DNA of 64,000 nt from Lapillicoccus sp. (GCF_039935575.1 NZ_JBDTKA010000111.1:903-64902); one strand, 5' to 3'; shown: positions 39,857 through 53,851, numbered from the stretch's first letter. The notes: generated by a model not told the origin, from the letters alone. Translations and numbers: made by a program.

Positions 39857-40924
39857 CGCCACCGCAGCGGGCGAGTCGGGCACACCGAGCACGACCGGTA
39901 TGCCGCTGTCCCCACCCTCGCGGACGCGCGTGTCGAGCGGGATCTGCCCGAGTAACGGCACCGGCGCGCCGACCGAGCGCGTGAGCGAGTCGGAGACGGC
40001 CTGACCGCCGCCGGAGCCGAAGATCTCGTGCCGCGACCCGTCCGGCATCTCGAGCCAGGACATGTTCTCGACGACCCCGACCAGACGTTGGTGGGTCTGC
40101 AAAGCGATGGCTCCGGCGCGTTCGGCCACCTCGGCGGCCGCTTGTTGCGGGGTGGTGACGACGAGGATCTCGGCCGTGGGGATCAGCTGCGCCACCGAGA
40201 TGGCGATGTCCCCCGTGCCGGGCGGCAGGTCCAGCAGCAGCACGTCGAGGTCACCCCAGAACACGTCGCCGAGGAACTGCTGCAGGGCCCGGTGGAGCAT
40301 CGGTCCGCGCCACACCACCGGCTGGTTCCCGGGGACGAACATCCCGATCGAGATGACCTTCACGTCGTACGAGATGGGGGGCAGGATCATGTCGTCGACC
40401 TGGGTCGGACGCTGCTGCACACCGAGCATCCGCGGCACCGAGAACCCGTAGACGTCGGCGTCGACCACCCCGACCCGCAGCCCCTGGGCGGCCATCGACG
40501 CGGCGAGGTTGACGGTCACCGAGGACTTGCCGACGCCCCCCTTGCCGGAGGCGATGGCATATACGCGGGTGAGCGAGCCCGGTCTGGCGAACGGGATCTC
40601 GCGCTCCGCCTGCCCGCCCCGCAGCTGGGTCTTGAGCGTGGCGCGCTGCTCGTCGCTCATCACGTCGAGGGTGACGTCGACCGTGTCGACGCCCTCGACG
40701 GCGACCAGGGCGGCGGTGATGTCCTTGGTCAGCGTCTCCTTCATCGGGCAGCCGGCCACGGTGAGGAAGATCGTCACGGCTACTCGGCCGGCGTCGTCGA
40801 CCGCGACGGACTTGACCATGCCGAGCTCGGTGATGGGCTTGCGGATCTCGGGGTCGTTCACACGCGAGAGCGCGGAGAGCAGCTCATCCTGGGTGGGCAG
40901 AACGCTGGTAGGCACGTTCTCCAT
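39773..40924 (-). CDS. mrp: Mrp/ApbC-family Fe-S cluster carrier ATPase
   Basis: Internal ATG (MENVPTS) of ORF 39773-40987. N-terminal DUF59-like region (VNDPEIRKPITELGMV) and deviant Walker A ASGKGGVGKSS. Confidence 0.9.
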   Translation of the reverse strand: MENVPTSVLPTQDELLSALSRVNDPEIRKPITELGMVKSVAVDDAGRVAVTIFLTVAGCPMKETLTKDITAALVAVEGVDTVDVTLDVMSDEQRATLKTQLRGGQAEREIPFARPGSLTRVYAIASGKGGVGKSSVTVNLAASMAAQGLRVGVVDADVYGFSVPRMLGVQQRPTQVDDMILPPISYDVKVISIGMFVPGNQPVVWRGPMLHRALQQFLGDVFWGDLDVLLLDLPPGTGDIAISVAQLIPTAEILVVTTPQQAAAEVAERAGAIALQTHQRLVGVVENMSWLEMPDGSRHEIFGSGGGQAVSDSLTRSVGAPVPLLGQIPLDTRVREGGDSGIPVVLGVPDSPAAVALRGVARALSVRARGLAGRSLGLTPTGR

Positions 40925-40990
40925 GCTATGTCGGCTCAGGAGCAGCGGCTGACCCGTCGGCCGGGCTGCGGGTGTGACCCCGCGCACCCA

Positions 40991-42448
40991 TCAGACCATG
41001 AGGTCGTCCATGTCCTCGAGCTCCTTGCCCTTGGTCTCCTTGACCCATCTGACGACGAAGATCAACGACAGCAGCGCCATTACGGCGTAGAAGCCGTACG
41101 AGAGGGAAAGGGAGATGTCCTTCATCGTCGGGAAGCTGACGGTGATCAGCCAGTTGGCCACCCACTGGGCGCCGGCGGCCAGCGAGAGCGCGGCCGCGCG
41201 AATCCGGTTCGGGAAAGACTCGCCAAGCAGAACCCAGACGACTGGGCCCCACGACATACCGAACGCGATGACAAAGACGTTCGCCGCGACCAAGGCGATC
41301 GGACCCTCGGCGCCAGTCAACACGGGGTTCACCGCACCCGCTGCATCCGTGGTGGTCTTGGCGACACCGAAGATCAACGCCATCACGCCGAGGCTCACCG
41401 TCATCCCGATCGAGCCGATGACGAGCAGCGGCTTGCGTCCGACACGGTCGACGGTGGCGATGGCGATCAGGGTCGTCACGATGTTGACGACCGCGGTGAT
41501 GACGGTGATCTTGAAGGAGTCGGCCTCGCTGAACCCGACTGCCTCCCAGAGAATGTTGGAGTAGTAGAAGATCACGTTGATGCCGACGAACTGCTGGAAG
41601 ACGGACAGCAGTATGCCGATCCAGACGATGGGCAGCAGCCCGCCCTTGGGTGCCCGCAGGTCGGACCAGGACGGTTTGGTGTCGGACTTGAGGGAGTGCT
41701 GGATGCGGGTGACCCGCTCCTCGGTGCCTTTGGAGCCCAGCATCAAGTCGAGCACGCGGCGAGCCTCGGGGATTTGCCGGTTCGCGATCAGGTAGCGCGG
41801 GGACTCGGGGATGAACAGCGACAGGCCCCCGTAGAGGACGGCGGGGACGATCATCGCGAGGAACATCCAGCGCCACGCGTCGAGCCCGAACCAGAACGGG
41901 CTGGAGGAGCTGCCCGCGACCGTCGCGAAGATGTAGTCGACAAGCAGCGAAAGGAAGATGCCCGTGACGATGGCCAGCTGTTGCAGCGAACCCAGCCGGC
42001 CACGCAACCGGGCGGGCGCGATCTCGGCGATGTATGCGGGGGCGATCACCGATGCGATGCCCACGCCGAGACCGCCGATGATGCGGAACACGATGAGCAC
42101 GAGCAGGTCGGGGGCGAAGCCGGACCCGAGGGCGCTGATGAGAAAAAGCACGGCGGCGACCTGCATGACGCGCAGCCGGCCGAACCGGTCGGCAATCCGA
42201 CCCGCCAACACAGCGCCGACGGCGGCGCCGAGCAGCGCGGACGCCACCGCGAACCCCAAGGCGCCGGACTCGACGTCGAACACCTTGCCGATCGCGCTGA
42301 CCGCGCCGTTGATGACGGCGCTGTCGTAGCCGAACAGGAACCCGCCGAGCGCGGCGACCGCGGCGACCTTGATTGCTGGACCGATGGGGGCGTTCTCGTC
42401 GTCCTCGCCGAGTGGGCCTGTGCTGGGGATCGAGCTGGTGTCAGCCAT
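40991..42448 (-). CDS. MFS sugar porter family transporter
   Basis: GGFLFGYDSAVINGAV, GRIADRFGR, PESPRYL and PETKG-like (VKETKGKELEDMD) motifs. 12 TM pattern. Confidence 0.9.
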   Translation of the reverse strand: MADTSSIPSTGPLGEDDENAPIGPAIKVAAVAALGGFLFGYDSAVINGAVSAIGKVFDVESGALGFAVASALLGAAVGAVLAGRIADRFGRLRVMQVAAVLFLISALGSGFAPDLLVLIVFRIIGGLGVGIASVIAPAYIAEIAPARLRGRLGSLQQLAIVTGIFLSLLVDYIFATVAGSSSSPFWFGLDAWRWMFLAMIVPAVLYGGLSLFIPESPRYLIANRQIPEARRVLDLMLGSKGTEERVTRIQHSLKSDTKPSWSDLRAPKGGLLPIVWIGILLSVFQQFVGINVIFYYSNILWEAVGFSEADSFKITVITAVVNIVTTLIAIATVDRVGRKPLLVIGSIGMTVSLGVMALIFGVAKTTTDAAGAVNPVLTGAEGPIALVAANVFVIAFGMSWGPVVWVLLGESFPNRIRAAALSLAAGAQWVANWLITVSFPTMKDISLSLSYGFYAVMALLSLIFVVRWVKETKGKELEDMDDLMV

Positions 42449-42541
42449 CGGAACCGCCTCACGCGTCGTGGTGTTTGCGGTTCATTGTGTACCCGGGGAG
42501 TCGGGCGTGACCGGCACCGGCAGGCACAAAATGCACAAGTC

Positions 42542-43111
42542 TTATCGGCGCGGCTCGTCGTCGACGCTGCCCGACAGACCGCGCTCCTCCATCTCGTCCA
42601 GCAGCTGGCGCAGTTCGGAGCGCACGAAGTCCCGAGTCGCTATGTCTCGCAACGCGATCCGCAACGCCGCGACCTCTCGGGTGAGGAACTCGGTGTCGGC
42701 GAGGTTGCGCTCGTCCCTGGCTCTGTCCTGCTCCAACGCAACGCGGTCGCGGTCGGCCAGGCGGTTCTGGGCTAGCAGGATGAGGGGCGCCGCATAGGAC
42801 GCCTGCAGCGACAGGATGAGCGTGAGCAGGGTGTAGTTCGTCGCGCGCGGGTCGAACTGATGTGCCTCGGGCGCGAAGGTGTTCCACACCAGCCAGGCCC
42901 CGACAAAGACGGTCATGCCGACGATGAACGAGGCGGTTCCCATCCCGCGGGCGAATGCCTCGCTCCACCGTCCGAAGGTCTCCGGTGAGAAGGACGGCGT
43001 GGGGACGAAGCGTCGCCGGAACTCCTGGGGCTGGTCGAGTCGGGGCGCGTCGTCCCGCCTGCGCCCAGACCGAACGACTCGCCGGTCCGCTCGGTCGTTC
43101 CGGTCAGCCAC
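42542..43111 (-). CDS. DUF1003-family membrane protein
   Basis: Two TM helices, then LILSLQASYAAPLILLAQNRLADRDR. Overlaps the upstream MgtE-N gene by 8 nt. Confidence 0.7.
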   Translation of the reverse strand: MADRNDRADRRVVRSGRRRDDAPRLDQPQEFRRRFVPTPSFSPETFGRWSEAFARGMGTASFIVGMTVFVGAWLVWNTFAPEAHQFDPRATNYTLLTLILSLQASYAAPLILLAQNRLADRDRVALEQDRARDERNLADTEFLTREVAALRIALRDIATRDFVRSELRQLLDEMEERGLSGSVDDEPRR

Positions 43112-44472: not shown

Positions 44473-45012
44473 TCAGCGAGTGCCGCGGCGCCGTTTGGGC
44501 CGCCCGAACAGGTGCCACGGACGCCACCGGCTGGTGGTGGCGCGGGATGCCGGGGGGGTCGCGGCGCCCGACCCGTCCGTGTAGCTGCCCGGACCTTCTA
44601 CCGGGTTGCCGTACGGGGTCAGGGCCGTCACCGCGCACTCGTAACGCCAGCGGTCGAGGGCACCGGGCGGCGCGTTGAGTCGTCCTGCTGACAAGGCGGT
44701 GGTGGCGGTCTCCCACTGCGGTTCGGTGTCGGCGAGGACGCGGGTTCTGGCCCGCACGCGCAGGAGTCGGCCGCCGGTGTCCTGGCTGCGCAGCACGAGG
44801 ACGACCTCCTCCGGTAGCCACGGCAGATGCTGCTCCCCGGGGCCGTTGACCACGTAGGCGGTCGGCGCGACCCAGGCGTGCCAGACCGGCCAGGCCCGGT
44901 CGCCCGGGACCTCGACCCAGATGATCCCCGACTTGGTCATCGCCTCGCCGACCAGGGCCGTGATGTTGGCGCCCTGGGCGGCGTCGACCTCCGGAGCGGG
45001 CTGCTCGGTCAC
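44473..45012 (-). CDS. conserved hypothetical protein
   Basis: 179-aa ORF with normal codon bias, 22 nt downstream of the esterase gene. No motif recognised. Confidence 0.45.
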   Translation of the reverse strand: MTEQPAPEVDAAQGANITALVGEAMTKSGIIWVEVPGDRAWPVWHAWVAPTAYVVNGPGEQHLPWLPEEVVLVLRSQDTGGRLLRVRARTRVLADTEPQWETATTALSAGRLNAPPGALDRWRYECAVTALTPYGNPVEGPGSYTDGSGAATPPASRATTSRWRPWHLFGRPKRRRGTR

Positions 45013-45033
45013 GGTGCCGAGCGTAGGCGATGG

Positions 45034-45852
45034 TCAACCAGCCAGGTGTCGCGAGGCGAACGCGATCTGCGCCGGCACCGTGGTCCGCCAGTAGTCGTCG
45101 GTGTGGCCACCGGTGGCGAAGGTTCCCTCGGGCGGCTCGACGAAGCCCGTCACGAACGCCCGGTTGGCGACGATGAAGGGATCGGACGTCCCGCAGTCGA
45201 CCCGCAGCGGGACTGCTCCGATGACGGTGCGCAAACCGAACACGTCGTGGTCCCGGAAGTCCTGGGCGTCGTCGAACGCACCCGGCGCACTCAACCCCGG
45301 TTGCTGCCACAGGGCGGCGCTCATCGTCGAGACCGCCCGGACCCGGCCTTTCAGGGTCGTCGCGCAGAGCAGCAGCGCGCCGTACCCGCCCATCGACCAC
45401 CCCATCAGGGCCAGCCGGGAGGTGTCGAGACCGCGGGCCGCGAGCAGCGGGACCAGCTCGTCCGTCACCATGGCGCCGACATCGGTGCCGTCCTTGCGTC
45501 GGTGGTAGTAGCTGTCACCGCCGTCGACGCCCACCACGGCCAACGGCGCCACCATCGTCCCGGAGCGCATCAGGGCGCCGAGGTCGACAAGACCTTCGAC
45601 GTCGCGGTGGCTCCCGCCCTTGCCGTGCAGGGCGACGACCACGGGCAGCGACGCATCGGTAGGGGAGTCGGGCGGGTAGAGCACGGCATACCCGGTGTCG
45701 ACCCCGCCGCGCGCAGACGACCGGAACGACCCCTCGACCAGTCCTGGCGAGGGCGGCCGCAGCAGCGAGCACCCGGCGACGCTGCTCACGGCACCAGCGC
45801 CGGCCAGTCCCAGCGCACCCCGCAACACGGTGCGACGGCCGATGGTACCCAC
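45034..45852 (-). CDS. secreted esterase-family alpha/beta hydrolase (Tat signal + lipobox)
   Basis: MGTIGRRTVLRGALGLAGAGAVSSVAGC has a twin-arginine and a lipobox. Nucleophile elbow GWSMGGYGAL. Confidence 0.75.
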   Translation of the reverse strand: MGTIGRRTVLRGALGLAGAGAVSSVAGCSLLRPPSPGLVEGSFRSSARGGVDTGYAVLYPPDSPTDASLPVVVALHGKGGSHRDVEGLVDLGALMRSGTMVAPLAVVGVDGGDSYYHRRKDGTDVGAMVTDELVPLLAARGLDTSRLALMGWSMGGYGALLLCATTLKGRVRAVSTMSAALWQQPGLSAPGAFDDAQDFRDHDVFGLRTVIGAVPLRVDCGTSDPFIVANRAFVTGFVEPPEGTFATGGHTDDYWRTTVPAQIAFASRHLAG

Positions 45853-45897
45853 CGGGCGACCGTAGCGCGACTGACGGCGAACCCAGGCCGGATCCGG

Positions 45898-46116
45898 CTA
45901 CTCGCCCGTCTCGCCGTCGATCGACTCCCGGACGAGGTCGGCGTGACCCGCGTGCCGGGCCGTCTCCTCGATCATGTGGAGAACGACCCAGCGCAACGAG
46001 ACGTGCGAGCCGTTGCGCAGCGTCCCGACGGACAGGACCGCGAGGTCACCCGTCGCAGCCACGACCGCGCGGCTGCGCGCGCAGGCGTCGAGGTACGCCT
46101 GTTTCAGCTCGTCCGG
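45898..46116 (-). pseudogene. C-terminal remnant of a DinB/DUF664-family gene
   Basis: Minus frame reads [72 protein letters not shown]-stop (72 codons). It is bounded upstream by an in-frame TAG at 46117-46119, with no N-terminal half. Confidence 0.55.
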
Positions 46117-46160
46117 CTAGGGGTCCGATGGCTCCTCCTGGCCTGGCTGTCGGTCATCGG

Positions 46161-47009
46161 TCACCACCTCGACGTCGCTGCCGCCATCAGGTCCCCGAAG
46201 AGCTCGCCGTCGTCGACGGGATATCCCCGCCGAGTGAACCAGTCGGCCATGTTCTTCGCGTCGCGCTCCAGGAACTCCGGTCCGTGCGGGTTGCCGATGA
46301 TGTCGACGATCTGCGGCCAGTCGATCACCACGAGCCGCTCACCGTCGAGCAGCACGTTGTAGGGCGAGAGGTCCCCGTGCGCCCACCCACGCAACGCGAG
46401 CGTCGTCATGGTCTCGCGCAGCTGCTCGAACAGCTCGGGCAGCAGGTCGGCGGGGGGTCTGGTCTGGACCAGTCGAGGGGCTGCCTCGCCGTCCTGACCG
46501 ATGAGCTCCATCAGCATCTCGGTGTCGCCCAGCTGGACGGGATAGGGCACGGGCAGCCCCATCTCCCAGAGCTTTCCGAGCGCGTCGAACTCGGCCATGG
46601 CCCACTGTCCAGTGATGAGGGCCTTGCCGAACTCGGTGCGACGTCCCATGGCCCGCATCTCGCGACTGCGCCGCACCCGTCGGCCTTCGAGATAGCCGGT
46701 GTCTCGGTGGAACATCCGGTGTTCGGCGCCGCGGAACCGTTTGGCGGCCATCAGGACGTCCTGGCCCGGCTGGTCGGGAACCCAGCGGCGCACGATGTGG
46801 ACCTCCGCCTCCTTGCCGGACTTGAGCACGCCGAGGTCGGCATCGACCGCGCCGAGGGCGGTGACGACCCAGTCGGGTCGAGGTTTCGGGCCGTGCATCG
46901 ACCCGTCCCACGAGGACCACTGGTCTCCTGCGGGCGGTCCGTCGGGCTTGCTGTCAAGCGCGAACGACGCGATGTCCCAGTCGTCGGCGGATGGTGTTGC
47001 AGGTGTCAC
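46161..47009 (-). CDS. RIO1-family atypical serine protein kinase
   Basis: LKSGKEAEVHIV (ATP-binding loop/Lys region), MELIG hinge-like segment, catalytic HGDLSPYNVL and metal-binding VVIDWPQ motifs. Confidence 0.8.
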   Translation of the reverse strand: MTPATPSADDWDIASFALDSKPDGPPAGDQWSSWDGSMHGPKPRPDWVVTALGAVDADLGVLKSGKEAEVHIVRRWVPDQPGQDVLMAAKRFRGAEHRMFHRDTGYLEGRRVRRSREMRAMGRRTEFGKALITGQWAMAEFDALGKLWEMGLPVPYPVQLGDTEMLMELIGQDGEAAPRLVQTRPPADLLPELFEQLRETMTTLALRGWAHGDLSPYNVLLDGERLVVIDWPQIVDIIGNPHGPEFLERDAKNMADWFTRRGYPVDDGELFGDLMAAATSRW

Positions 47010-47276: not shown

Positions 47277-50200
47277 GTGGCGACGACGTCGTTCGCTCGC
47301 GGGCGGTTGCGTGTCACGCACCCGGTGACCTACCGCGCCACGAGCGTGCGCACGCGAAGCCGAGGGATCGACGGGACTACTCCCCAGGACGTCGATACGG
47401 TGGTCGTGAACACGTTGCGGGACAACGGGTTCAACCAGGTGCAGCGGGTCGCCATCACGTCGGGCACTGGTCGTGGTCTCGGTGACCGAGGGCTGCGGGC
47501 TCGTCCGCGCCCGGCCGCCGTCACGATCGCTCTGGACGTGGCCGATGACGAGGATGCCGTGGTCCTGCTCGAGACCGGTGGCTGTTACTCGTGGGTCCTC
47601 CCGACGCACGAACCGCGGCCCCGCAGCCGCGGCACGGACCGGGCGTTGTCCGGCCGGGTGGCGCGGTTCGACATCAGCATCGCACCGACCTCCGGGGCAG
47701 CCGAACGCACGCGAGTCCGTGACCTCGGCTGGCCGACCAGCAGTGCCGGAGCCCGTGCAACCGTGCTGTCGTTCGCGGCCGGCGCCCTCGGCGACGCCGC
47801 GATACGCCTGCTGGAGAGTCGGGTGGAGCCGGGGTTCGTGCACGTGACCTCCGCCGATCCGAGCGGGTGGACGCGCGTCGACGACCTCGCGGCCGTGGGT
47901 CTCGACGCCGCCCGCCCCAACCGCGTTCTGCTCCTGGTCCACGGAACGTTCGACTCGACCCTCGGCGCCTTCTCCGGCCTGGCCGCCACCGCAGAGGGGC
48001 GTGCCTTCCTCGAGGCGGCGGTCGAGGCATACGACGCGGTCGTCGGTTTCGACCACCGCACCCTCAGCGTCGACCCTTTGGCCAATGCCACCGACCTTGG
48101 GCAGCGACTCGTCGCCCTGGTCGCCACGGCGCCGGTGACGCTCGATGTGTTGTGCCACAGCCGCGGTGGGCTCACGGCACGAAGCTTCGCCGAGTCGGTG
48201 CTGCCGGGCCTGGCCTGGCGGGGTCGGGTGGACCGGGCAGTGTTCGTGGCTGCGACGAACGCCGGGACGCACTTCGCCGACGCAGATCGGTGGAAGGACC
48301 TCGCCGACCTCTACACCAACCTCGTCTCGGCGCACGCCCGAGCGCTCGCCGCCGTTCCCGGGGGCGGAGTGCTCGCCGACGCGGCCGTGTCGGCGATCAG
48401 GGGCATCGGCGCTCTCGTCAGCTGGCTCGCGTCCTACGCGACAGCGAGTGGGAGCGTCCCCGGCCTGGCGGCGATGAACCCCGACGGCGCGTTCGTCGAG
48501 ACGATCAACCAGGACCAGCCTGGGCAGCCGCGTCCCGGCACCCCGTGGTTCGTCGTCTCGTCGGACTTCCATGCCACGACCGCCACCAGGCCCGAGGAGA
48601 TCCCCGCCGAGGTTTTCAGCCGCCTCGTCGAGGGGGTCGTCGACAAGGTGTTCGACGGTCCGAACGACCTGGTCGTCGACGATGCGTCGATGAGCGCCAT
48701 CGACCTGCCGCACGGTGGGGGATATGTGCGCGATACCCTCGCATTGGGAACGAATGCTGTTGTCTACCACACCAACTACTTCTCACAACCGGTTGTGGCC
48801 AAGGCCCTCCAGTCCTGGCTCGTCGACCGGCTCGACAGCCTCGACAGCCTCGACAGCCTTGACACAGCCTCGGCTGGGCCGCCTCCGAACCGTGTCGAAC
48901 CACCTCTGGTCCCGCCTGAGCAACCGCACCAACGGGGGCCGGTCGCGGTCGAGGAGCGACTGCCGGACGGCTGGCAGCCCTCGTTCCCCACGAACGCCGA
49001 GCCGCCGGACGAGTCCGCGACGCCGACGGTCCGGGCGCGGCTGCGGGCCGAGATGCCCCTTCATCCGACGGTCGGCCTCAGCGTCTCGGTCCGGGTCCGG
49101 CTGTCACGCGGCCCACTCGACGCCGCCACAGGAACGGCCTCGCGGCAGACGGTGCTGACCATCCGGCCCGAGATCCCGGTGTCGATCCAGCTGGTGCCGT
49201 CGACGAACGCCGTCCTCGAGGACGAGGACCTGCGGCTGGTCCTGCTCCAGCCAGGCATCGCCTCGTCGGACGTCACTTTTGCGGTGCACGCAGTCGCGGT
49301 CGGGCCGGTACGCGTACGCGTTCTCGCCCGACAGGGAGCGGAGCTGCTCGGGACGCTCGAGCTGGCCACCGAGGCGGTCTCTGCTGCGGTCGCCGCGGCC
49401 GCCTCCGACGCACCGGGGGGACGACAAGCGGTGACCCGCGGTCAGGTCGAGATCGCGAGTAGCACCTCGCCAGTGCTGGCCGACACACCGTGGCTCGAGA
49501 TCTCGCAGATCCAACGCGGTGGCCAGACCCACTTCCAGTACGAGCTGCGCATGCCCGGCGCCGACCTCTCTTCCACCGACCATCGGCTCACATACGAGTC
49601 CGCGGACATCGGTGACCCCGAGGCGTTCGTCTCGAACCGGATCAAGGAGGTGATGGCGCTGTGGTTCGACTACTCGACGGCACCGCGGACCTACCTCGCC
49701 AAGCTGCAGGACCTCGGCGCCGCCCTGTTCGAGCAGCTCTTCCCCCAGGAGATGCAGCGGTTCCTCTGGACGAACCGAGGCAGGCTCGAGGGCCTGTTCC
49801 TCCTCACCGACGAGCCGTTCATCCCCTGGGAGCTCGTGCATCTGAAGCCCGCCACCGGCCCACGCCAGAAGGCGCCGAGGTTCCTCGGCCAGCTCGGGCT
49901 TGTCCGGTGGCAGTTCACGCCTTTTCCGGCGACGGCGACCCTGCGGGCCCGGCCCGGGGAGGTCTTCGCAGTCTGTCCGGACTACGCCGACGACCGGAAC
50001 GACCTGGACCAGGCCGGGCTGGAGAGGGCCTTCCTCACCGCCACCCTCGGCGCGACCGAGGTCACGGCGACCGAGGCCAAGGTCCGCGCGCTGCTGCGGC
50101 GCCGGGGGAGCTTCGACCTGTTGCACTTCAGCGGTCACGGCGAGGCCGACGCCACCAACATTGCCGACGCGCGGATTCTGTTGGCCGGACGCCGGGTCGG

Positions 50201-50585
50201 GGACGCCCTGGTGGCCGACTACCTGTCGTCGACGACCGTCGCGGAGAACGCCCGCTTGTCCAGACGCGACGGTCCTGGACCGCTGGTCGTCCTCAACGCC
50301 TGTCAGGTGGGCCGTTCGGGGGAGGAGCTGACCTCCCTCGGCGGGTTCGCACGTGCCTTCCTGGAGGCGGGGGCCTCCGCGTTCGTCTCCTGCCTGTGGT
50401 CGGTCAACCAGGTGCCGGCACAGGCCTTCGCCGAGACCTTCTACCGTCAGCTCCTCGACGGACGGACGGTCGCCGAGGCGGCCCTCGCCGCACGCAGCGC
50501 TGCCCGGAACGGCGACCGCGGCGACGCGACCTGGCTGGCCTACGTCGTCTACGCGCGCCCCGACGCTGTTCTCGTCCGGGACTGA
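47277..50585 (+). CDS. 1102-aa multidomain protein: unassigned N-terminus, alpha/beta-hydrolase (lipase/PGAP1-like), Pro-rich linker, beta-rich middle region, C-terminal CHAT (caspase-fold) protease
   Basis: In-frame GTG 47277 of ORF 46128-50585, with aggagg ending 6 nt upstream; the upstream part of the ORF is antisense to the RIO kinase. LLLVHGTFDS and LCHSRGG (Ser295). CHAT dyad LLHFSGHGEAD (His954) and VVLNACQVG (Cys1009). Confidence 0.8.
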   Translation: MATTSFARGRLRVTHPVTYRATSVRTRSRGIDGTTPQDVDTVVVNTLRDNGFNQVQRVAITSGTGRGLGDRGLRARPRPAAVTIALDVADDEDAVVLLETGGCYSWVLPTHEPRPRSRGTDRALSGRVARFDISIAPTSGAAERTRVRDLGWPTSSAGARATVLSFAAGALGDAAIRLLESRVEPGFVHVTSADPSGWTRVDDLAAVGLDAARPNRVLLLVHGTFDSTLGAFSGLAATAEGRAFLEAAVEAYDAVVGFDHRTLSVDPLANATDLGQRLVALVATAPVTLDVLCHSRGGLTARSFAESVLPGLAWRGRVDRAVFVAATNAGTHFADADRWKDLADLYTNLVSAHARALAAVPGGGVLADAAVSAIRGIGALVSWLASYATASGSVPGLAAMNPDGAFVETINQDQPGQPRPGTPWFVVSSDFHATTATRPEEIPAEVFSRLVEGVVDKVFDGPNDLVVDDASMSAIDLPHGGGYVRDTLALGTNAVVYHTNYFSQPVVAKALQSWLVDRLDSLDSLDSLDTASAGPPPNRVEPPLVPPEQPHQRGPVAVEERLPDGWQPSFPTNAEPPDESATPTVRARLRAEMPLHPTVGLSVSVRVRLSRGPLDAATGTASRQTVLTIRPEIPVSIQLVPSTNAVLEDEDLRLVLLQPGIASSDVTFAVHAVAVGPVRVRVLARQGAELLGTLELATEAVSAAVAAAASDAPGGRQAVTRGQVEIASSTSPVLADTPWLEISQIQRGGQTHFQYELRMPGADLSSTDHRLTYESADIGDPEAFVSNRIKEVMALWFDYSTAPRTYLAKLQDLGAALFEQLFPQEMQRFLWTNRGRLEGLFLLTDEPFIPWELVHLKPATGPRQKAPRFLGQLGLVRWQFTPFPATATLRARPGEVFAVCPDYADDRNDLDQAGLERAFLTATLGATEVTATEAKVRALLRRRGSFDLLHFSGHGEADATNIADARILLAGRRVGDALVADYLSSTTVAENARLSRRDGPGPLVVLNACQVGRSGEELTSLGGFARAFLEAGASAFVSCLWSVNQVPAQAFAETFYRQLLDGRTVAEAALAARSAARNGDRGDATWLAYVVYARPDAVLVRD
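48831..48863 (+). repeat. in-frame 9-bp tandem repeat (ctcgacagc x3 plus partial) encoding LDSLDSLDSLD
   Basis: Direct reading of 48831-48863, inside the linker after the hydrolase domain. Confidence 0.85.
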
Positions 50586-50672
50586 CCTCGGCAAAACCAC
50601 TGCACCACACAGCTGTTCAAAAACTCAGTCATTCGGCTGCTCAGAAGCACGACTACACCGGAAGGACCCATC

Positions 50673-51524
50673 ATGACTGCTCGCGCCCTCTGTGTCGGGA
50701 TCAACGAGTTCGCCCACCTGCCCACCTCGAGCTGGCTGAACGGGTGCGTCAACGACGCGAACGACATGTCCGCGCTGCTGCTCACCCAGCCGGGCTTCAC
50801 CCGCCGCAACGTCACCGTGCTGGCGGATGCCGCGGCCACCAAGGCCAACGTCATGACGGCGCTGACCGACATGGTCGGCAAGGCCAAGGCCGGCGCCCTG
50901 GACCACGTCGTCTTCTCCTTCTCCAGCCACGGAACGCAGGTGCCCGACACCAACGGCGACGAGAAGGTCGACCACGTCGACGAGGCGTTCGCCTGCCACG
51001 ACATCGCCCAGAAGGGTGACGACTGGGACCGCGACACCGTGATCGTCGACGACGAGCTGAACGTCCTCCTCCAGGACATTCCCAAAGGCGTGCTCGTCGA
51101 GGTGGTCCTCGACACCTGCCACAGCGGGACGGGCCTGCGCGACATCGACCTGCTGTCGGGGCGGCGCCCTCGGTTCCTTCCTCCGCCCACCCGCAAAGGC
51201 ATCCTGCGTCTGGCCCCGAAGTCGGACCCCAAGGGCCTGCAGGAGCTGGTCAGGTCGACGCCCGCGGCCACGAGGGCGGTCCTGTATGCCGCCTGTCGCG
51301 CGGACCAGACCTCGGCCGACGCCTACTTCGACGGACGTTACAACGGCGCGTTCACGTACTACTTTCTCGAGGCGGTCAAGGGCGGCGGCTATCCGTCCCG
51401 GTCTGCTCTGATGACCGCCGTCAGCCAGGCGCTGCGCACCGGTGACTTCGAACAGCGCGCCCAGCTCGAGGCGTCTCAGAGGGCCAAGCGGTCCGCTTTC
51501 GGTGCACTGCCGGACGGGTCGTGA
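50673..51524 (+). CDS. caspase-like cysteine peptidase (Peptidase C14 / metacaspase-like), stand-alone
   Basis: ALCVGINEF...GCVNDANDM, FSFSSHGTQ (His86) and VVLDTCHSGTG (Cys149). ggaagga lies before the ATG. Confidence 0.85.
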   Translation: MTARALCVGINEFAHLPTSSWLNGCVNDANDMSALLLTQPGFTRRNVTVLADAAATKANVMTALTDMVGKAKAGALDHVVFSFSSHGTQVPDTNGDEKVDHVDEAFACHDIAQKGDDWDRDTVIVDDELNVLLQDIPKGVLVEVVLDTCHSGTGLRDIDLLSGRRPRFLPPPTRKGILRLAPKSDPKGLQELVRSTPAATRAVLYAACRADQTSADAYFDGRYNGAFTYYFLEAVKGGGYPSRSALMTAVSQALRTGDFEQRAQLEASQRAKRSAFGALPDGS

Positions 51525-51528
51525 CCCG

Positions 51529-52380
51529 ATGCCGCTCCTGAAGCACGCGTTCTGCCCGGGGTACCCGCCACCGTTCGACTCCCTCGTTGCGGACTACCCG
51601 GGTGAAGACGTATACCCGCAGAAGGACTTCCGCACCGAGTGGGGCCCGATCTTCCACCGGGGCCGTCTCGACGGCTCCGCCGTGGTGCTGGTCCTCGGGC
51701 AGGACCCCGCGACGCACGAGAGCGTCAGTCGCCGCATCCTCGTGGGTGAGGCGGGACAACGCGTGCAGGGGCTGCTCGCGAAGCTGGGGGTCGCCCACTC
51801 CTACACGATGGTGAATACGTTCCTCTACAGCGTCTACGGTCAGGGTGGCGGCAGCCGGCACGAGCACGACGAGCACATCGCGGACTACCGGAACCGTTGG
51901 CTCGACGCGCTTCTGGACGGCACCCGCGTGACGACCGTGATCACCCTGGGCATGCTCGCGGCGTCGGCTTACCAGTCCTGGCTGGGCTCCCGCCCGCAGC
52001 TGGCTGCGGGACTACAGCACACCGCCCTGCGACACCCCACCTATCCCGAGAGCGCTTCGGCCAGTGGCCAGAAGACGCTCGCCGCGGCCACCGAGATCCT
52101 GCTCTCCGACTGGAACGCCCACCTGCCCGAGCTGAGGTCACACGTCCAGCCAGACTTCCCTCCAACTGCGACGGTCTATGGAAACAGCTGGCAGGAGGGC
52201 GATCTCGCCCGGATCCCCCAGGCAGACCTGCCGCCCGGTTCGCCGGACTGGTGGTTCGAGCTGGCGGCGTGGGCCTCACGGACGGGCAAGGACACCCAGC
52301 TGAAACGCGCGACCATCCAGGTGGTCGTCCCCACCCGGGCGCGCACCTGGCCCGTCCTCACCCCGACCGGCGGGAGCTGA
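51529..52380 (+). CDS. uracil-DNA-glycosylase-superfamily (UDG-fold) protein of unclear family
   Basis: Internal ATG of ORF 51442-52380, 4 nt after the caspase stop. VLVLGQDPATHES (motif A position; Asp59) and ALRHPTYP (motif B position; His169). No Fe-S cysteine cluster. Confidence 0.6.
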   Translation: MPLLKHAFCPGYPPPFDSLVADYPGEDVYPQKDFRTEWGPIFHRGRLDGSAVVLVLGQDPATHESVSRRILVGEAGQRVQGLLAKLGVAHSYTMVNTFLYSVYGQGGGSRHEHDEHIADYRNRWLDALLDGTRVTTVITLGMLAASAYQSWLGSRPQLAAGLQHTALRHPTYPESASASGQKTLAAATEILLSDWNAHLPELRSHVQPDFPPTATVYGNSWQEGDLARIPQADLPPGSPDWWFELAAWASRTGKDTQLKRATIQVVVPTRARTWPVLTPTGGS

Positions 52381-52384
52381 CGCG

Positions 52385-53755
52385 ATGGCTTCCACCGGAA
52401 CGTTCGAACGCGCATACAAGCGCGGCGTGACGCGGCGGCAGGAACCTGCGCCGCGCCGCCCCCGGGCCTTGCCCCCTGCTCCGTTCTGCCTGCACGGCGC
52501 GGTGATCACGCCCGATGAGGCGTGGCCGAGCGGTTACGTCACCGTCGAGAACGGGGTCATTGCGACCGTCGGGAAACGCAAGCCGACCGGTGTCACGGTC
52601 ACCGAGACCGACGGCGTGATCCTGCCCGGGCTGCTCGACCTGCACGGACACCCGGAGTTCAACGTCTTCGCGGCCTGGGAGCCACCGAGGCTTTATGCCA
52701 ACCGGTACCGCTGGCGCGCAAGCACCCCGTATCGCGTCCTGGTCCGGGACCCGCAGAACACCATTCTCAGTACCCTGCCCCCGCAGACCCAGAGCCGGTA
52801 TGCCGAGATCCGCGCCTTGACCGCCGGCGTGACGGCGATCCAAGGGGCCTCAGGAGCCAGCACCGCTACGGCAGAACCGTTGGTACGCAACGTGGATCTC
52901 TTCGTGTTCGGTGACCACCGTGCCCGGGCCATGATCGACCTGCCCACGGGTTCGAGCCGCGACATGCCTCGGCTCAAGAAGATCGTGGCCGACATCGGCA
53001 CCGGTGATGTCGACGCCTTCTACCTGCACCTGTGCGAAGGCGTCCCGGGCGACGAACGCAGCGCCACGGAGTTCGCGAGCTTCCTGCACGCGGGCGCAGC
53101 CACCCCAGCGACCAACGTCATCCACGGTTCGGCGTTGTCCGAGACCGACCTGCACACGCTCGCCGACGCGGGGTGCCGGCTGGTCTGGTCGCCGCAGTCC
53201 AACCTGCGGCTCTACGGCGCGACGACATCCGCGGGCGTTGCGCGGCAGGCCGGTATGCAGGTGGCGCTCGGAGCCGACTGGTTGCCGTCGGGGTCGACCA
53301 GCCTGCTCGCCGAGATGAAGGTGGCGCGACGCCAGCTCGCCCTCCAGGGCCACCCGGTCACCGCGGCCGAGCTCGTAGCGATGGTCACCTCGGTGGCGGC
53401 GTCGGTCGCGGGCCTGTCAGCACATCTGGGAGCGGTTGCAGTGGGCCGGCCGGCGGACTTGTTGGTGCTCGAGCGCCATCACGCCGACCCCTACGAGAAC
53501 GTCTGCCTGGCGGACCCGTCGTGGGTGGAGCTCGTCTGCATCGGCGGCGACATCACCTACGCGCGGCAGGACTGGTTCGAGCGGCTGTCCGGCAACGCGC
53601 AGAGCGACACGATCGAGTCGCTGCTCGCATGGGGAAAGCCGATGCGGCTCGACAACGGCTATGGGTCGGGCCACCAGTCGCCGACCCCGTCGCTGTCGCA
53701 GATCCGGACCTTGCTCACGACCACCTACCCGCAGGTAGGTCCGATCTACGCCTGA
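52385..53755 (+). CDS. amidohydrolase-superfamily enzyme with deaminase-type motif set
   Basis: 4 nt after the upstream stop. LDLHGHPE (His87/His89), YLHLCEG (His215/Glu218), VIHGS (His247) and LGADW (Asp298). Confidence 0.8.
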   Translation: MASTGTFERAYKRGVTRRQEPAPRRPRALPPAPFCLHGAVITPDEAWPSGYVTVENGVIATVGKRKPTGVTVTETDGVILPGLLDLHGHPEFNVFAAWEPPRLYANRYRWRASTPYRVLVRDPQNTILSTLPPQTQSRYAEIRALTAGVTAIQGASGASTATAEPLVRNVDLFVFGDHRARAMIDLPTGSSRDMPRLKKIVADIGTGDVDAFYLHLCEGVPGDERSATEFASFLHAGAATPATNVIHGSALSETDLHTLADAGCRLVWSPQSNLRLYGATTSAGVARQAGMQVALGADWLPSGSTSLLAEMKVARRQLALQGHPVTAAELVAMVTSVAASVAGLSAHLGAVAVGRPADLLVLERHHADPYENVCLADPSWVELVCIGGDITYARQDWFERLSGNAQSDTIESLLAWGKPMRLDNGYGSGHQSPTPSLSQIRTLLTTTYPQVGPIYA

Positions 53756-53851
53756 CCTCTCTCACCACAGCACGCCTGATCGGGACGGAACCGTGACCTG
53801 GGGGCCGGGTCCGCGTCGCCGCCGCTGCGGGTGAGTCTGAGACAATCAGGC

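Follow-up and report, generated by a model that had tools for sequence, protein, structure and literature searches.

Effectors gated by proteases are known in bacteria from the gasdermin operons and from the SAVED-CHAT and PCaspase cascades of type III CRISPR systems. In bacterial conflict systems, the alpha/beta-hydrolase-caspase combination is also a catalogued pair of effectors, and the rare effectors of the ternary MoxR-vWA (VMAP) systems include DNA glycosylase domains (Kaur, Burroughs, Iyer and Aravind, eLife 2020, PMC7159879). Among enzymes with the uracil-DNA glycosylase (UDG) fold, Brig1 and Brig2 have a proven action against phages (PMC11078745; 10.1101/2025.10.29.685425), while BdiUng (Blr0248 of Bradyrhizobium diazoefficiens; PDB 5GN2) was published as the orphan representative of a new family of UDGs, with its role in vivo left unclear (Chembazhi et al., NAR 2017, PMC5449639). 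We analysed a stretch of 64,000 nucleotides from Lapillicoccus sp. (GCF_039935575.1 NZ_JBDTKA010000111.1:903-64902), hereafter the window, of which positions 47,277 to 53,755 hold four consecutive genes encoding an alpha/beta-hydrolase-CHAT giant protein, a metacaspase-like peptidase, a BdiUng-family UDG and a deaminase-type amidohydrolase (genes 1 to 4). The last two belong to a glycosylase-amidohydrolase-peptidase association that appears to be undescribed in the searchable literature, in which a search for a cluster of these three activities returned no paper. The four open reading frames (ORFs), all on the + strand and separated by 87, 4 and 4 nt, were verified and are each intact with complete catalytic motifs. 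The coordinates and gaps proposed by an initial annotation, made from the sequence alone, were all borne out, and every motif position that it listed was exact, the residues concerned being invariant or nearly so in the homologue alignments.

The publication describes BdiUng as a dimeric, Ugi-insensitive enzyme preferring single-stranded DNA (ssDNA), which excises uracil, 5-hydroxymethyluracil (5-hmU) and xanthine, possesses a ssDNA-binding groove and has pNUNN as minimal substrate; it is weak on duplex DNA and fails to complement an E. coli ung mutant (PMC5449639). Gene 3 (51529-52380, + strand, 283 aa) is a BdiUng-family glycosylase with a predicted Blr0248-like activity. It matches the UDG superfamily of Pfam (33 bits), and the profile of its homologues retrieves 5GN2 from the PDB with an E-value of 1.6e-101 over residues 3-267. 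Compared with Blr0248, it displays 51% identity over 264 aa (E 8e-89) in an end-to-end alignment. Its motifs are GQDPA at positions 57-61 (motif A), Asn96 and RHPT at 168-171 (containing His169), of which GQDPA, Asn96 and His169 are invariant in both the actinobacterial and the cross-phylum alignments. The designation of gene 3 as a UDG-fold protein was therefore right as to fold and motifs but incomplete, this protein being no anonymous carrier of the fold but a full-length member of the BdiUng family.

Gene 4 (52385-53755, + strand, 456 aa) encodes a metal-dependent amidohydrolase of the TRZ/ATZ (COG0402) deaminase type, as indicated by Pfam (Amidohydro_1, 51 bits) and by the comparison of its AlphaFold2 (AF2) model with Foldseek. 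The motifs HGH (87-89), HLCE (215-218), H247 and D298 correspond by position to the ligand and catalytic set formed by HxH on strand 1, HxxE on strand 5, His on strand 6 and Asp on strand 8, and no substitution of H87, H89, H215, E218, H247 or D298 occurs among 22 sequences drawn from several phyla. The model (mean predicted local distance difference test, pLDDT, 90.1) adopts a two-domain fold consisting of a beta-sandwich and a (beta/alpha)8 barrel, with 4f0s, 4dzh, 4v1x, 6ohb and 2uz9 as top Foldseek matches (probability 1.0, template modelling (TM) score 0.60-0.65), the correspondence extending along the entire model. The best PDB matches of the family profile are AtzA, the methylthioadenosine/S-adenosylhomocysteine (MTA/SAH) deaminases, guanine deaminase and 8-oxoguanine deaminase. 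Gene 4 carries the catalytic machinery by which enzymes hydrolytically replace exocyclic amino or alkylamino substituents of purine, pyrimidine or triazine rings. It shares the two-domain fold and the HxH/HxxE/His/Asp set with the TRZ/ATZ deaminases (guanine, MTA/SAH, 8-oxoguanine and isocytosine deaminases, AtzA and TrzN), but is just 14-19% identical to any solved member, reads WSPxSN where these enzymes have HCPxSN on strand 7, and is linked in the genome with a DNA glycosylase gene. Against the NCBIfam equivalogs, the best score was obtained with guanine deaminase (61.5 bits versus a cutoff of 375) and the others were also far below their cutoffs, so that gene 4 is no recognisable salvage enzyme. 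Four of its relatives (P0411, P0489, P0490 and P0507, about 35% identity) are long proteins with bacterial immunoglobulin-like and lamin-tail domains and TSP3 repeats, and their extracellular appearance suggests that the amidohydrolase family has roles beyond the UDG-linked one.

Genes 3 and 4 constitute a module (51529-53755) that is probably translationally coupled. Relatives of the UDG were sought by scanning one genome per species, that is 185,579 species genomes, of which 344 were positive, and gene 4 was used to search 1.84 billion representatives. A query with the Blr0248 sequence, rebuilt from the PDB alignment, recovered loci of Bradyrhizobium japonicum (with a stop/start overlap), of Nitrosospira, and of a Kofleriaceae and a Burkholderiales metagenome-assembled genome (MAG), in all of which an amidohydrolase gene comes directly after the UDG gene. 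The range of the pair extends over Actinomycetota, Alpha- and Betaproteobacteria, Myxococcota and unassigned soil contigs. The UDG also adjoins an amidohydrolase, in co-directional or divergent orientation, in most of the 80 metagenome loci recovered with a cross-phylum profile. Two amidohydrolase types are found, one of about 456 aa as in the window and the other of about 520-545 aa, which are about 30% identical and have all catalytic residues in common; the UDG clades track these two types. Natural UDG-amidohydrolase fusions occur as well, P0365 (725 aa) on 2 contigs and P0430 (828 aa) on 5 contigs, with a UDG part 52-56% identical to that of the window. The pair is ancient and tight and, being composed of near-obligate neighbours in several phyla that sometimes form a single polypeptide, almost certainly represents one working unit.

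Some loci depart from this general arrangement or extend it. One UDG clade (L123-L136, e.g. L126, 4099-7722) is devoid of the amidohydrolase neighbour; the UDG is accompanied there by a conserved upstream ORF of about 300 aa and a convergent downstream ORF of about 590 aa, which have no match in Pfam, NCBIfam or the PDB and may be spurious. A metagenomic locus (L157, 5107-9295) displays a cyanophycin synthetase-like gene (956 aa) after the UDG-adjacent amidohydrolase. The locus of Nitrosospira sp. NpAV (L089, 10440-12822) has a UDG-amidohydrolase-S41 series followed by genes for an AlkA-like glycosylase, an Ogt-type methyltransferase and an AraC/Ada-like regulator, with an RNase H and an RNase T-like exonuclease upstream, a content that gives this neighbourhood a DNA-repair flavour.

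Peptidases are recurrently found beside the pair. Among the 72 loci having both flanks of at least 7.9 kb, 31 present a peptidase match at 5 kb or less from the UDG, and essentially all the matches sit 0-4 kb from it with almost none at 4-8 kb. Peptidase_C14 and Peptidase_S41 are the commonest Pfam families among the 125 immediate neighbours of 48 non-redundant loci. A CPAF-like S41 peptidase directly follows the amidohydrolase in at least 17 loci, including those of Nitrosospira and Cellulomonas, and is fused to it as a single ORF of 1203-1223 aa in two Acidimicrobiia MAGs. The other arrangements include an S8 subtilase (L090), a C14 peptidase with a sedolisin-like S53/S8 peptidase (L125), a homologue of which was found in L161 (34% identity, tblastn), an alpha/beta-hydrolase-like N-terminus fused to C14 (L091), a C14 gene divergent from S8, alpha/beta-hydrolase and UDG genes with a CHAT protein nearby (L039 group), a succession of S9, CHAT, amidohydrolase, UDG, C14 and lipase-like alpha/beta-hydrolase (L162), a C25-like clan-CD protein (L143), and a papain-family C1 peptidase with a chagasin-type inhibitor beside a UDG-amidohydrolase fusion (L174 and L175). 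An absence of linkage beyond close relatives, which the initial annotation had named as a refutation of its proposal, was not observed, the same enzyme classes (alpha/beta-hydrolase, CHAT, C14, BdiUng-type UDG and amidohydrolase) recurring as distinct non-orthologous genes, differently arranged, in L039, L162, L091 and L125. Orthology of the alpha/beta-hydrolases of L039 and L091 with DUF7379, the corresponding domain of gene 1, was considered and rejected, BLASTP giving no similarity between them; these are analogous recruitments, and the enzyme classes were accordingly recruited independently.

In the window, the peptidases are supplied by genes 1 and 2 (47277-51524), a module pairing an alpha/beta-hydrolase with caspase-superfamily proteins that travel together and are sometimes fused. 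Gene 1 (47277-50585, + strand, 1102 aa) contains, according to Pfam, DUF7362 (aa 9-149), the alpha/beta-hydrolase-like DUF7379 (aa 218-411, with Ser295), DUF7363 (aa 591-696) and a CHAT clan-CD peptidase domain (aa 908-1086) scoring 87.3 bits against a gathering threshold of 24 and endowed with a His954/Cys1009 dyad. The motifs CHSRGG (293-298), HFSGHG (950-955) and LNACQ (1006-1010) hold Ser295, His954 and Cys1009, respectively, and HSRGG, HFSGHG and NACQ are near-invariant in 24 aligned homologues. This four-domain order is common to 334 homologues, two of which are fused to Peptidase_C14. The whole giant protein has no match among PDB sequences (phmmer), a literature search on DUF7379 retrieved no paper, and the AF2 model of DUF7362 (aa 1-216, pLDDT 77) gave no Foldseek match in the PDB below an E-value of 0.1, this comparison providing no evidence of a DNA-binding or sensor fold. 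Gene 2 (50673-51524, + strand, 283 aa) is a metacaspase-like Peptidase_C14 (Pfam, 93.1 bits versus a gathering threshold of 21.4) with a complete His/Cys dyad, the motifs SSHGT (His86) and DTCHSG (Cys149) aligning to metacaspase-4; its best matches among PDB sequences are metacaspase-4, Mca1 and GSU0716 (E about 1e-17). In every locus examined, C14 follows the giant protein or is fused to it. The divergent RIO kinase noticed earlier upstream of gene 1 is real (46161-47009, - strand; Pfam RIO1, 112 bits). Terrabacter and the Dermatophilaceae loci have it as a conserved neighbour of the giant protein; it is absent both from L086 and L087, where the giant protein lies in the purEK context described below, and from three other loci harbouring the four-gene block (L016, L018 and L025); RIO1 is a possible regulator, the membership of which in the system is doubtful.

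The architecture of the cluster is modular. The unitary four-gene system of the initial annotation does not agree with the distribution of its parts, genes 1-2 and genes 3-4 being each widespread without the other. Among the loci compared (80 retrieved in the species scan; 84 covered by tblastn), UDG and amidohydrolase are adjacent in nearly all cases and the giant protein with C14 is present in only about 24. At the syntenic site of Terrabacter sp. C0L_2, the order is RIO1, giant protein, C14, acyl-CoA dehydrogenase and M24 peptidase, with no UDG or amidohydrolase; in Terrabacter and Intrasporangium the UDG-amidohydrolase pair sits after a YCII gene and an extracytoplasmic function (ECF) sigma factor gene. 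In other actinobacteria, the giant protein and C14 are located between purEK and MFS/MerR genes, as separate genes in one locus and as a single protein of 1463 aa in a second one. The complete four-gene block recurs in a second flank context (L016, L018 and L025), and the UDG gene is inverted in place in L054 and L064. The cluster is best explained as two conserved two-gene modules juxtaposed non-randomly and not as an indivisible four-gene system; this modularity and the coupling of UDG and amidohydrolase are what the comparison shows. Even so, the modules are not independent of each other: the pair repeatedly lies beside peptidases of differing families. A protein of 460 aa (P0400), in which a fragment of the alpha/beta-hydrolase region of the giant protein is joined to an amidohydrolase fragment, probably arose from a class I cluster by deletion or frameshift.

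Dermatophilaceae relatives share the synteny of the locus, which is ordinary in composition and no variable island. Long contigs of relatives, with UDGs 65-76% identical to that of the window, show the same gene order, namely DUF1003, MgtE-like, a conserved 200-aa gene (44479-45030 in the window, - strand), two HpcH_HpaI genes, RIO1, giant protein, C14, UDG, amidohydrolase, acyl-CoA dehydrogenase, YflT and M24 peptidase, from which the window differs only by the absence of the two HpcH_HpaI genes and of the acyl-CoA dehydrogenase gene. The G+C content is flat across the region (0.69-0.72) and the same as in the rest of the window. The view of a non-core stretch (44.4-53.8 kb) interrupting the conserved gene order finds no support, in view of this uniformity and of the order kept in relatives. 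Nor was the supposed pseudogene scar recovered, a tblastn search of the window for remnants of HpcH_HpaI or acyl-CoA dehydrogenase giving nothing at an E-value of 1e-3. In relatives, the HpcH_HpaI pair lies between the 200-aa gene and RIO1, which corresponds to the gap 45030-46160 of the window, and the acyl-CoA dehydrogenase gene lies between those of the amidohydrolase and YflT (53756-53830 in the window). The interval of about 1.1 kb at 45.0-46.2 kb contains unsupported ORFs only. Further upstream, an ORF of 915 aa (40028-42775, + strand), blank in Pfam, shares part of its extent with the oppositely oriented DUF1003 gene (about 42551-43042) and is probably, at least in part, a spurious high-GC ORF. 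Among relatives, C14, UDG and amidohydrolase are 61-85% identical, as compared with 63-90% for the flanking MgtE-like and M24 proteins, and the giant protein alone evolves faster (41-64%); the sequence comparison makes selection on the cluster genes look purifying. A promoter and terminator scan over the cluster found nothing exceeding the shuffled expectation.

Deamination of cytosine, 5-hydroxymethylcytosine and guanine yields uracil, 5-hmU and xanthine, respectively. Since the substrates of BdiUng are deamination products, the simplest coupled scheme places the amidohydrolase first and the glycosylase second. For the reactions, their sequence and their role in the cell, we infer that the amidohydrolase would hydrolytically introduce oxygen in place of the exocyclic amino group of a base, whether N-substituted or not, and that the glycosylase would then excise the resulting oxo-base, the whole scheme acting on ssDNA. 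The neighbouring peptidases would handle the protein or peptide part of the substrate, for example in the case of protein- or peptide-adducted bases, or alternatively could activate the glycosylase-amidohydrolase pair by cleavage. To this explanation as a whole, modules and mechanism together, we give about even odds. The BdiUng-type UDG, the amidohydrolase and the interchangeable peptidases could thereby form a previously unrecognised three-activity system on DNA, in which amino or N-adducted bases of ssDNA are converted into oxo-bases and excised while the peptidases strip the attached protein or unleash the pair, a reading to which we give a probability of roughly 0.25. Several observations weigh against the coupled scheme. 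To our knowledge, no deaminase of the amidohydrolase superfamily (TIM-barrel) acts on bases within DNA, the structural neighbours of gene 4 all act on free bases, nucleosides or triazines, and its AF2 model has no extra nucleic-acid-binding domain; if the amidohydrolase were limited to free bases, the order of deamination then excision would fail. In about 57% of the well-flanked loci the pair has no nearby peptidase, which implies that proteolysis is not obligatory. Moreover, many class I loci come from related species, so that the locus counts overstate the number of independent events, and these counts are rough, the ORF calling in high-GC loci being crude. In a reverse order, the glycosylase would release an amino-bearing base and the amidohydrolase would then deaminate it in its free form; this alternative agrees with the small-molecule relatives of gene 4 but leaves the peptidases unexplained.

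The deaminate-and-excise scheme on ssDNA could also be part of one integrated conflict or regulated-cell-death system, the candidate reading of the initial annotation, in which the giant protein (through its unassigned domains), C14 or the RIO kinase would respond to a signal and activate the pair proteolytically or accompany it; such a system would be the bacterial counterpart of APOBEC and UNG, gated by proteases in the manner of gasdermins, and we retain it as a tentative explanation. The variety of the proteases, including a papain-like one with its own chagasin-type inhibitor, may recall the gasdermin operons, and the distribution is patchy (344 of the 185,579 species genomes). Alpha/beta-hydrolase-caspase pairs are recurrent effectors and glycosylase domains rare ones (PMC7159879), and Brig1 and Brig2 provide an antiphage precedent (PMC11078745; 10.1101/2025.10.29.685425). 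In one locus with divergent arrangement (L002, 813-8350), a MoxR (AAA_3)-DUF58-VWA-trypsin/PDZ cluster, followed by a 710-aa C14 peptidase whose C-terminus spans the membrane several times, and by a 128-aa protein, stands directly beside the amidohydrolase-UDG pair. This cluster is a ternary conflict system of the type described by Kaur and colleagues and the sole case among the divergent-arrangement loci; the 710-aa and 128-aa genes, considered as a possible conserved trait of that arrangement, are confined to L002 and L003. The cluster of the window itself matches no named system, as the initial annotation stated: PADLOC-DB v2 detects generic CHAT and caspase domains only, the SAVED_CHAT and BovA matches being restricted to the CHAT domain (20-24 bits), and nothing in genes 3 and 4, and for none of the four proteins does an NCBIfam model attain its cutoff. 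Its statement that no STAND or AAA P-loop gene lies beside the cluster also stands, Pfam analysis of the ORFs at 40-58 kb giving MgtE_N/CBS, RIO1, YflT, M24 and a sigma-70 region 4 protein as neighbours and no AAA, P-loop or vWA domain, an NTPase core of this kind having been seen only in the unrelated locus L002; no STAND, AAA, cyclase, TIR or cas gene adjoins the cluster, which speaks against an integrated conflict system. The idea of a defence island is likewise at odds with the uniform G+C content, with a synteny stable across the bacterial family and with the 125 neighbours, in which known defence models are not enriched beyond the proteases. No copy of the UDG was found in plasmid and phage collections (tblastn) or in the viral contigs of IMG/VR (pattern scan), and C14, UDG and amidohydrolase are as conserved as their housekeeping neighbours. 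Most pairs stand alone, without protease or regulator, which is hard to square with a self-toxic effector, and E. coli strains producing BdiUng served for lysate and reversion assays, with no toxicity mentioned in the abstract and discussion of the paper (PMC5449639).

If the genes were instead neighbours devoid of functional relationship, the cluster would bring together in this lineage an unrelated repair glycosylase, salvage deaminase and protease pair. Both modules are indeed also found apart, Terrabacter and Intrasporangium carry both of them unlinked (L030/P0211, L043/P0223, L040/P0191 and L083/P0208), and the other neighbours of the pair are ordinary metabolic genes. Such a chance adjacency is nevertheless improbable in view of the UDG-amidohydrolase and amidohydrolase-S41 fusions, of the adjacency of UDG and amidohydrolase across phyla in co-directional and divergent orientations, of the recruitment of peptidases in at least 8 architectures through non-homologous genes, and of the sharp concentration of the peptidase positions next to the pair. 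We also judge unlikely a small-molecule pathway detoxifying or catabolising peptide-linked nucleobases or nucleosides, such as peptidyl-nucleoside antibiotics, in which the peptidase would trim the peptide, the amidohydrolase would deaminate the base and the UDG-fold enzyme would cut the N-glycosidic bond. The three enzyme classes would match the three bond types of these compounds, the structural relatives of the amidohydrolase all act on small molecules, an amidohydrolase-S41 fusion exists and the hosts are soil bacteria. However, BdiUng is a DNA enzyme, as its minimal substrate and its groove indicate (PMC5449639), endopeptidases of the caspase-like, CHAT, CPAF-like S41 and subtilase types are atypical for the catabolism of small peptides, and the neighbour census revealed no consistently linked transporter or regulator.

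The three-activity reading on DNA would, if true, have several consequences. An amidohydrolase acting on DNA would imply either a new processing of lesions or crosslinks or a new DNA-directed effector, and the enzyme would be the first of the amidohydrolase superfamily to turn ssDNA bases bearing amino groups or N-adducts into oxo-bases. With peptidases stripping proteins, the system would represent a bacterial proteolysis-coupled repair of DNA-protein or DNA-peptide crosslinks; with peptidases unleashing the pair, it would be a deaminate-and-excise weapon analogous to APOBEC-UNG. The pairing itself provides a testable handle on the role of a glycosylase widespread in soil bacteria. It places a glycosylase of known family with a new obligate partner beside a protease pair of known type, and the alpha/beta-hydrolase-CHAT protein and metacaspase of Dermatophilaceae constitute a stable chromosomal module detached from the NTPase cores of the described conflict systems.

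Compared with the MoxR-vWA (VMAP) systems, the cluster likewise shows an obligatory association of an alpha/beta-hydrolase with the caspase superfamily, DUF7379 being fused here to CHAT and followed by C14, but it has no MoxR, vWA, STAND or GTPase core, and the pair keeps a stable, syntenic place on the chromosomes of Dermatophilaceae and relatives. The likeness with the protease-gated effectors, in which a constant non-protease unit is combined with interchangeable caspase-like, CHAT or subtilase proteases, would be one of organisation; the cluster of the window differs from them by having no gasdermin, cas gene, cyclase or SAVED, and a cleavage of the UDG or of the amidohydrolase is purely hypothetical. 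The UDG superfamily fold is common to gene 3 and to Brig1 and Brig2. Brig-type genes, however, each constitute a system by themselves and reside in AT-rich islands and close to mobile elements (10.1101/2025.10.29.685425), whereas the BdiUng family is chromosomal, highly conserved, paired with an amidohydrolase and not retrieved from the phage, plasmid and viral collections searched. The pocket of BdiUng is open at the uracil C5 position, and the 5-hmU that it excises is a base of some phages (PMC5449639). Gene 3 resembles BdiUng by keeping GQDPA, with Ala replacing the Tyr of family 1, as well as the Asn and the His, and by retaining the C-terminal extension that serves dimerisation. In the publication, BdiUng is treated as a stand-alone repair enzyme, and a term search of the paper found gene neighbours or an amidohydrolase unmentioned (PMC5449639). 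The BdiUng family is, on the contrary, hardly ever found by itself: its coupling to a deaminase-type amidohydrolase goes as far as gene fusion, the pair is accompanied by a peptidase in about 40% of the well-sampled loci, and here as in Bradyrhizobium the BdiUng gene is directly followed by a conserved amidohydrolase gene, often with flanking peptidases.

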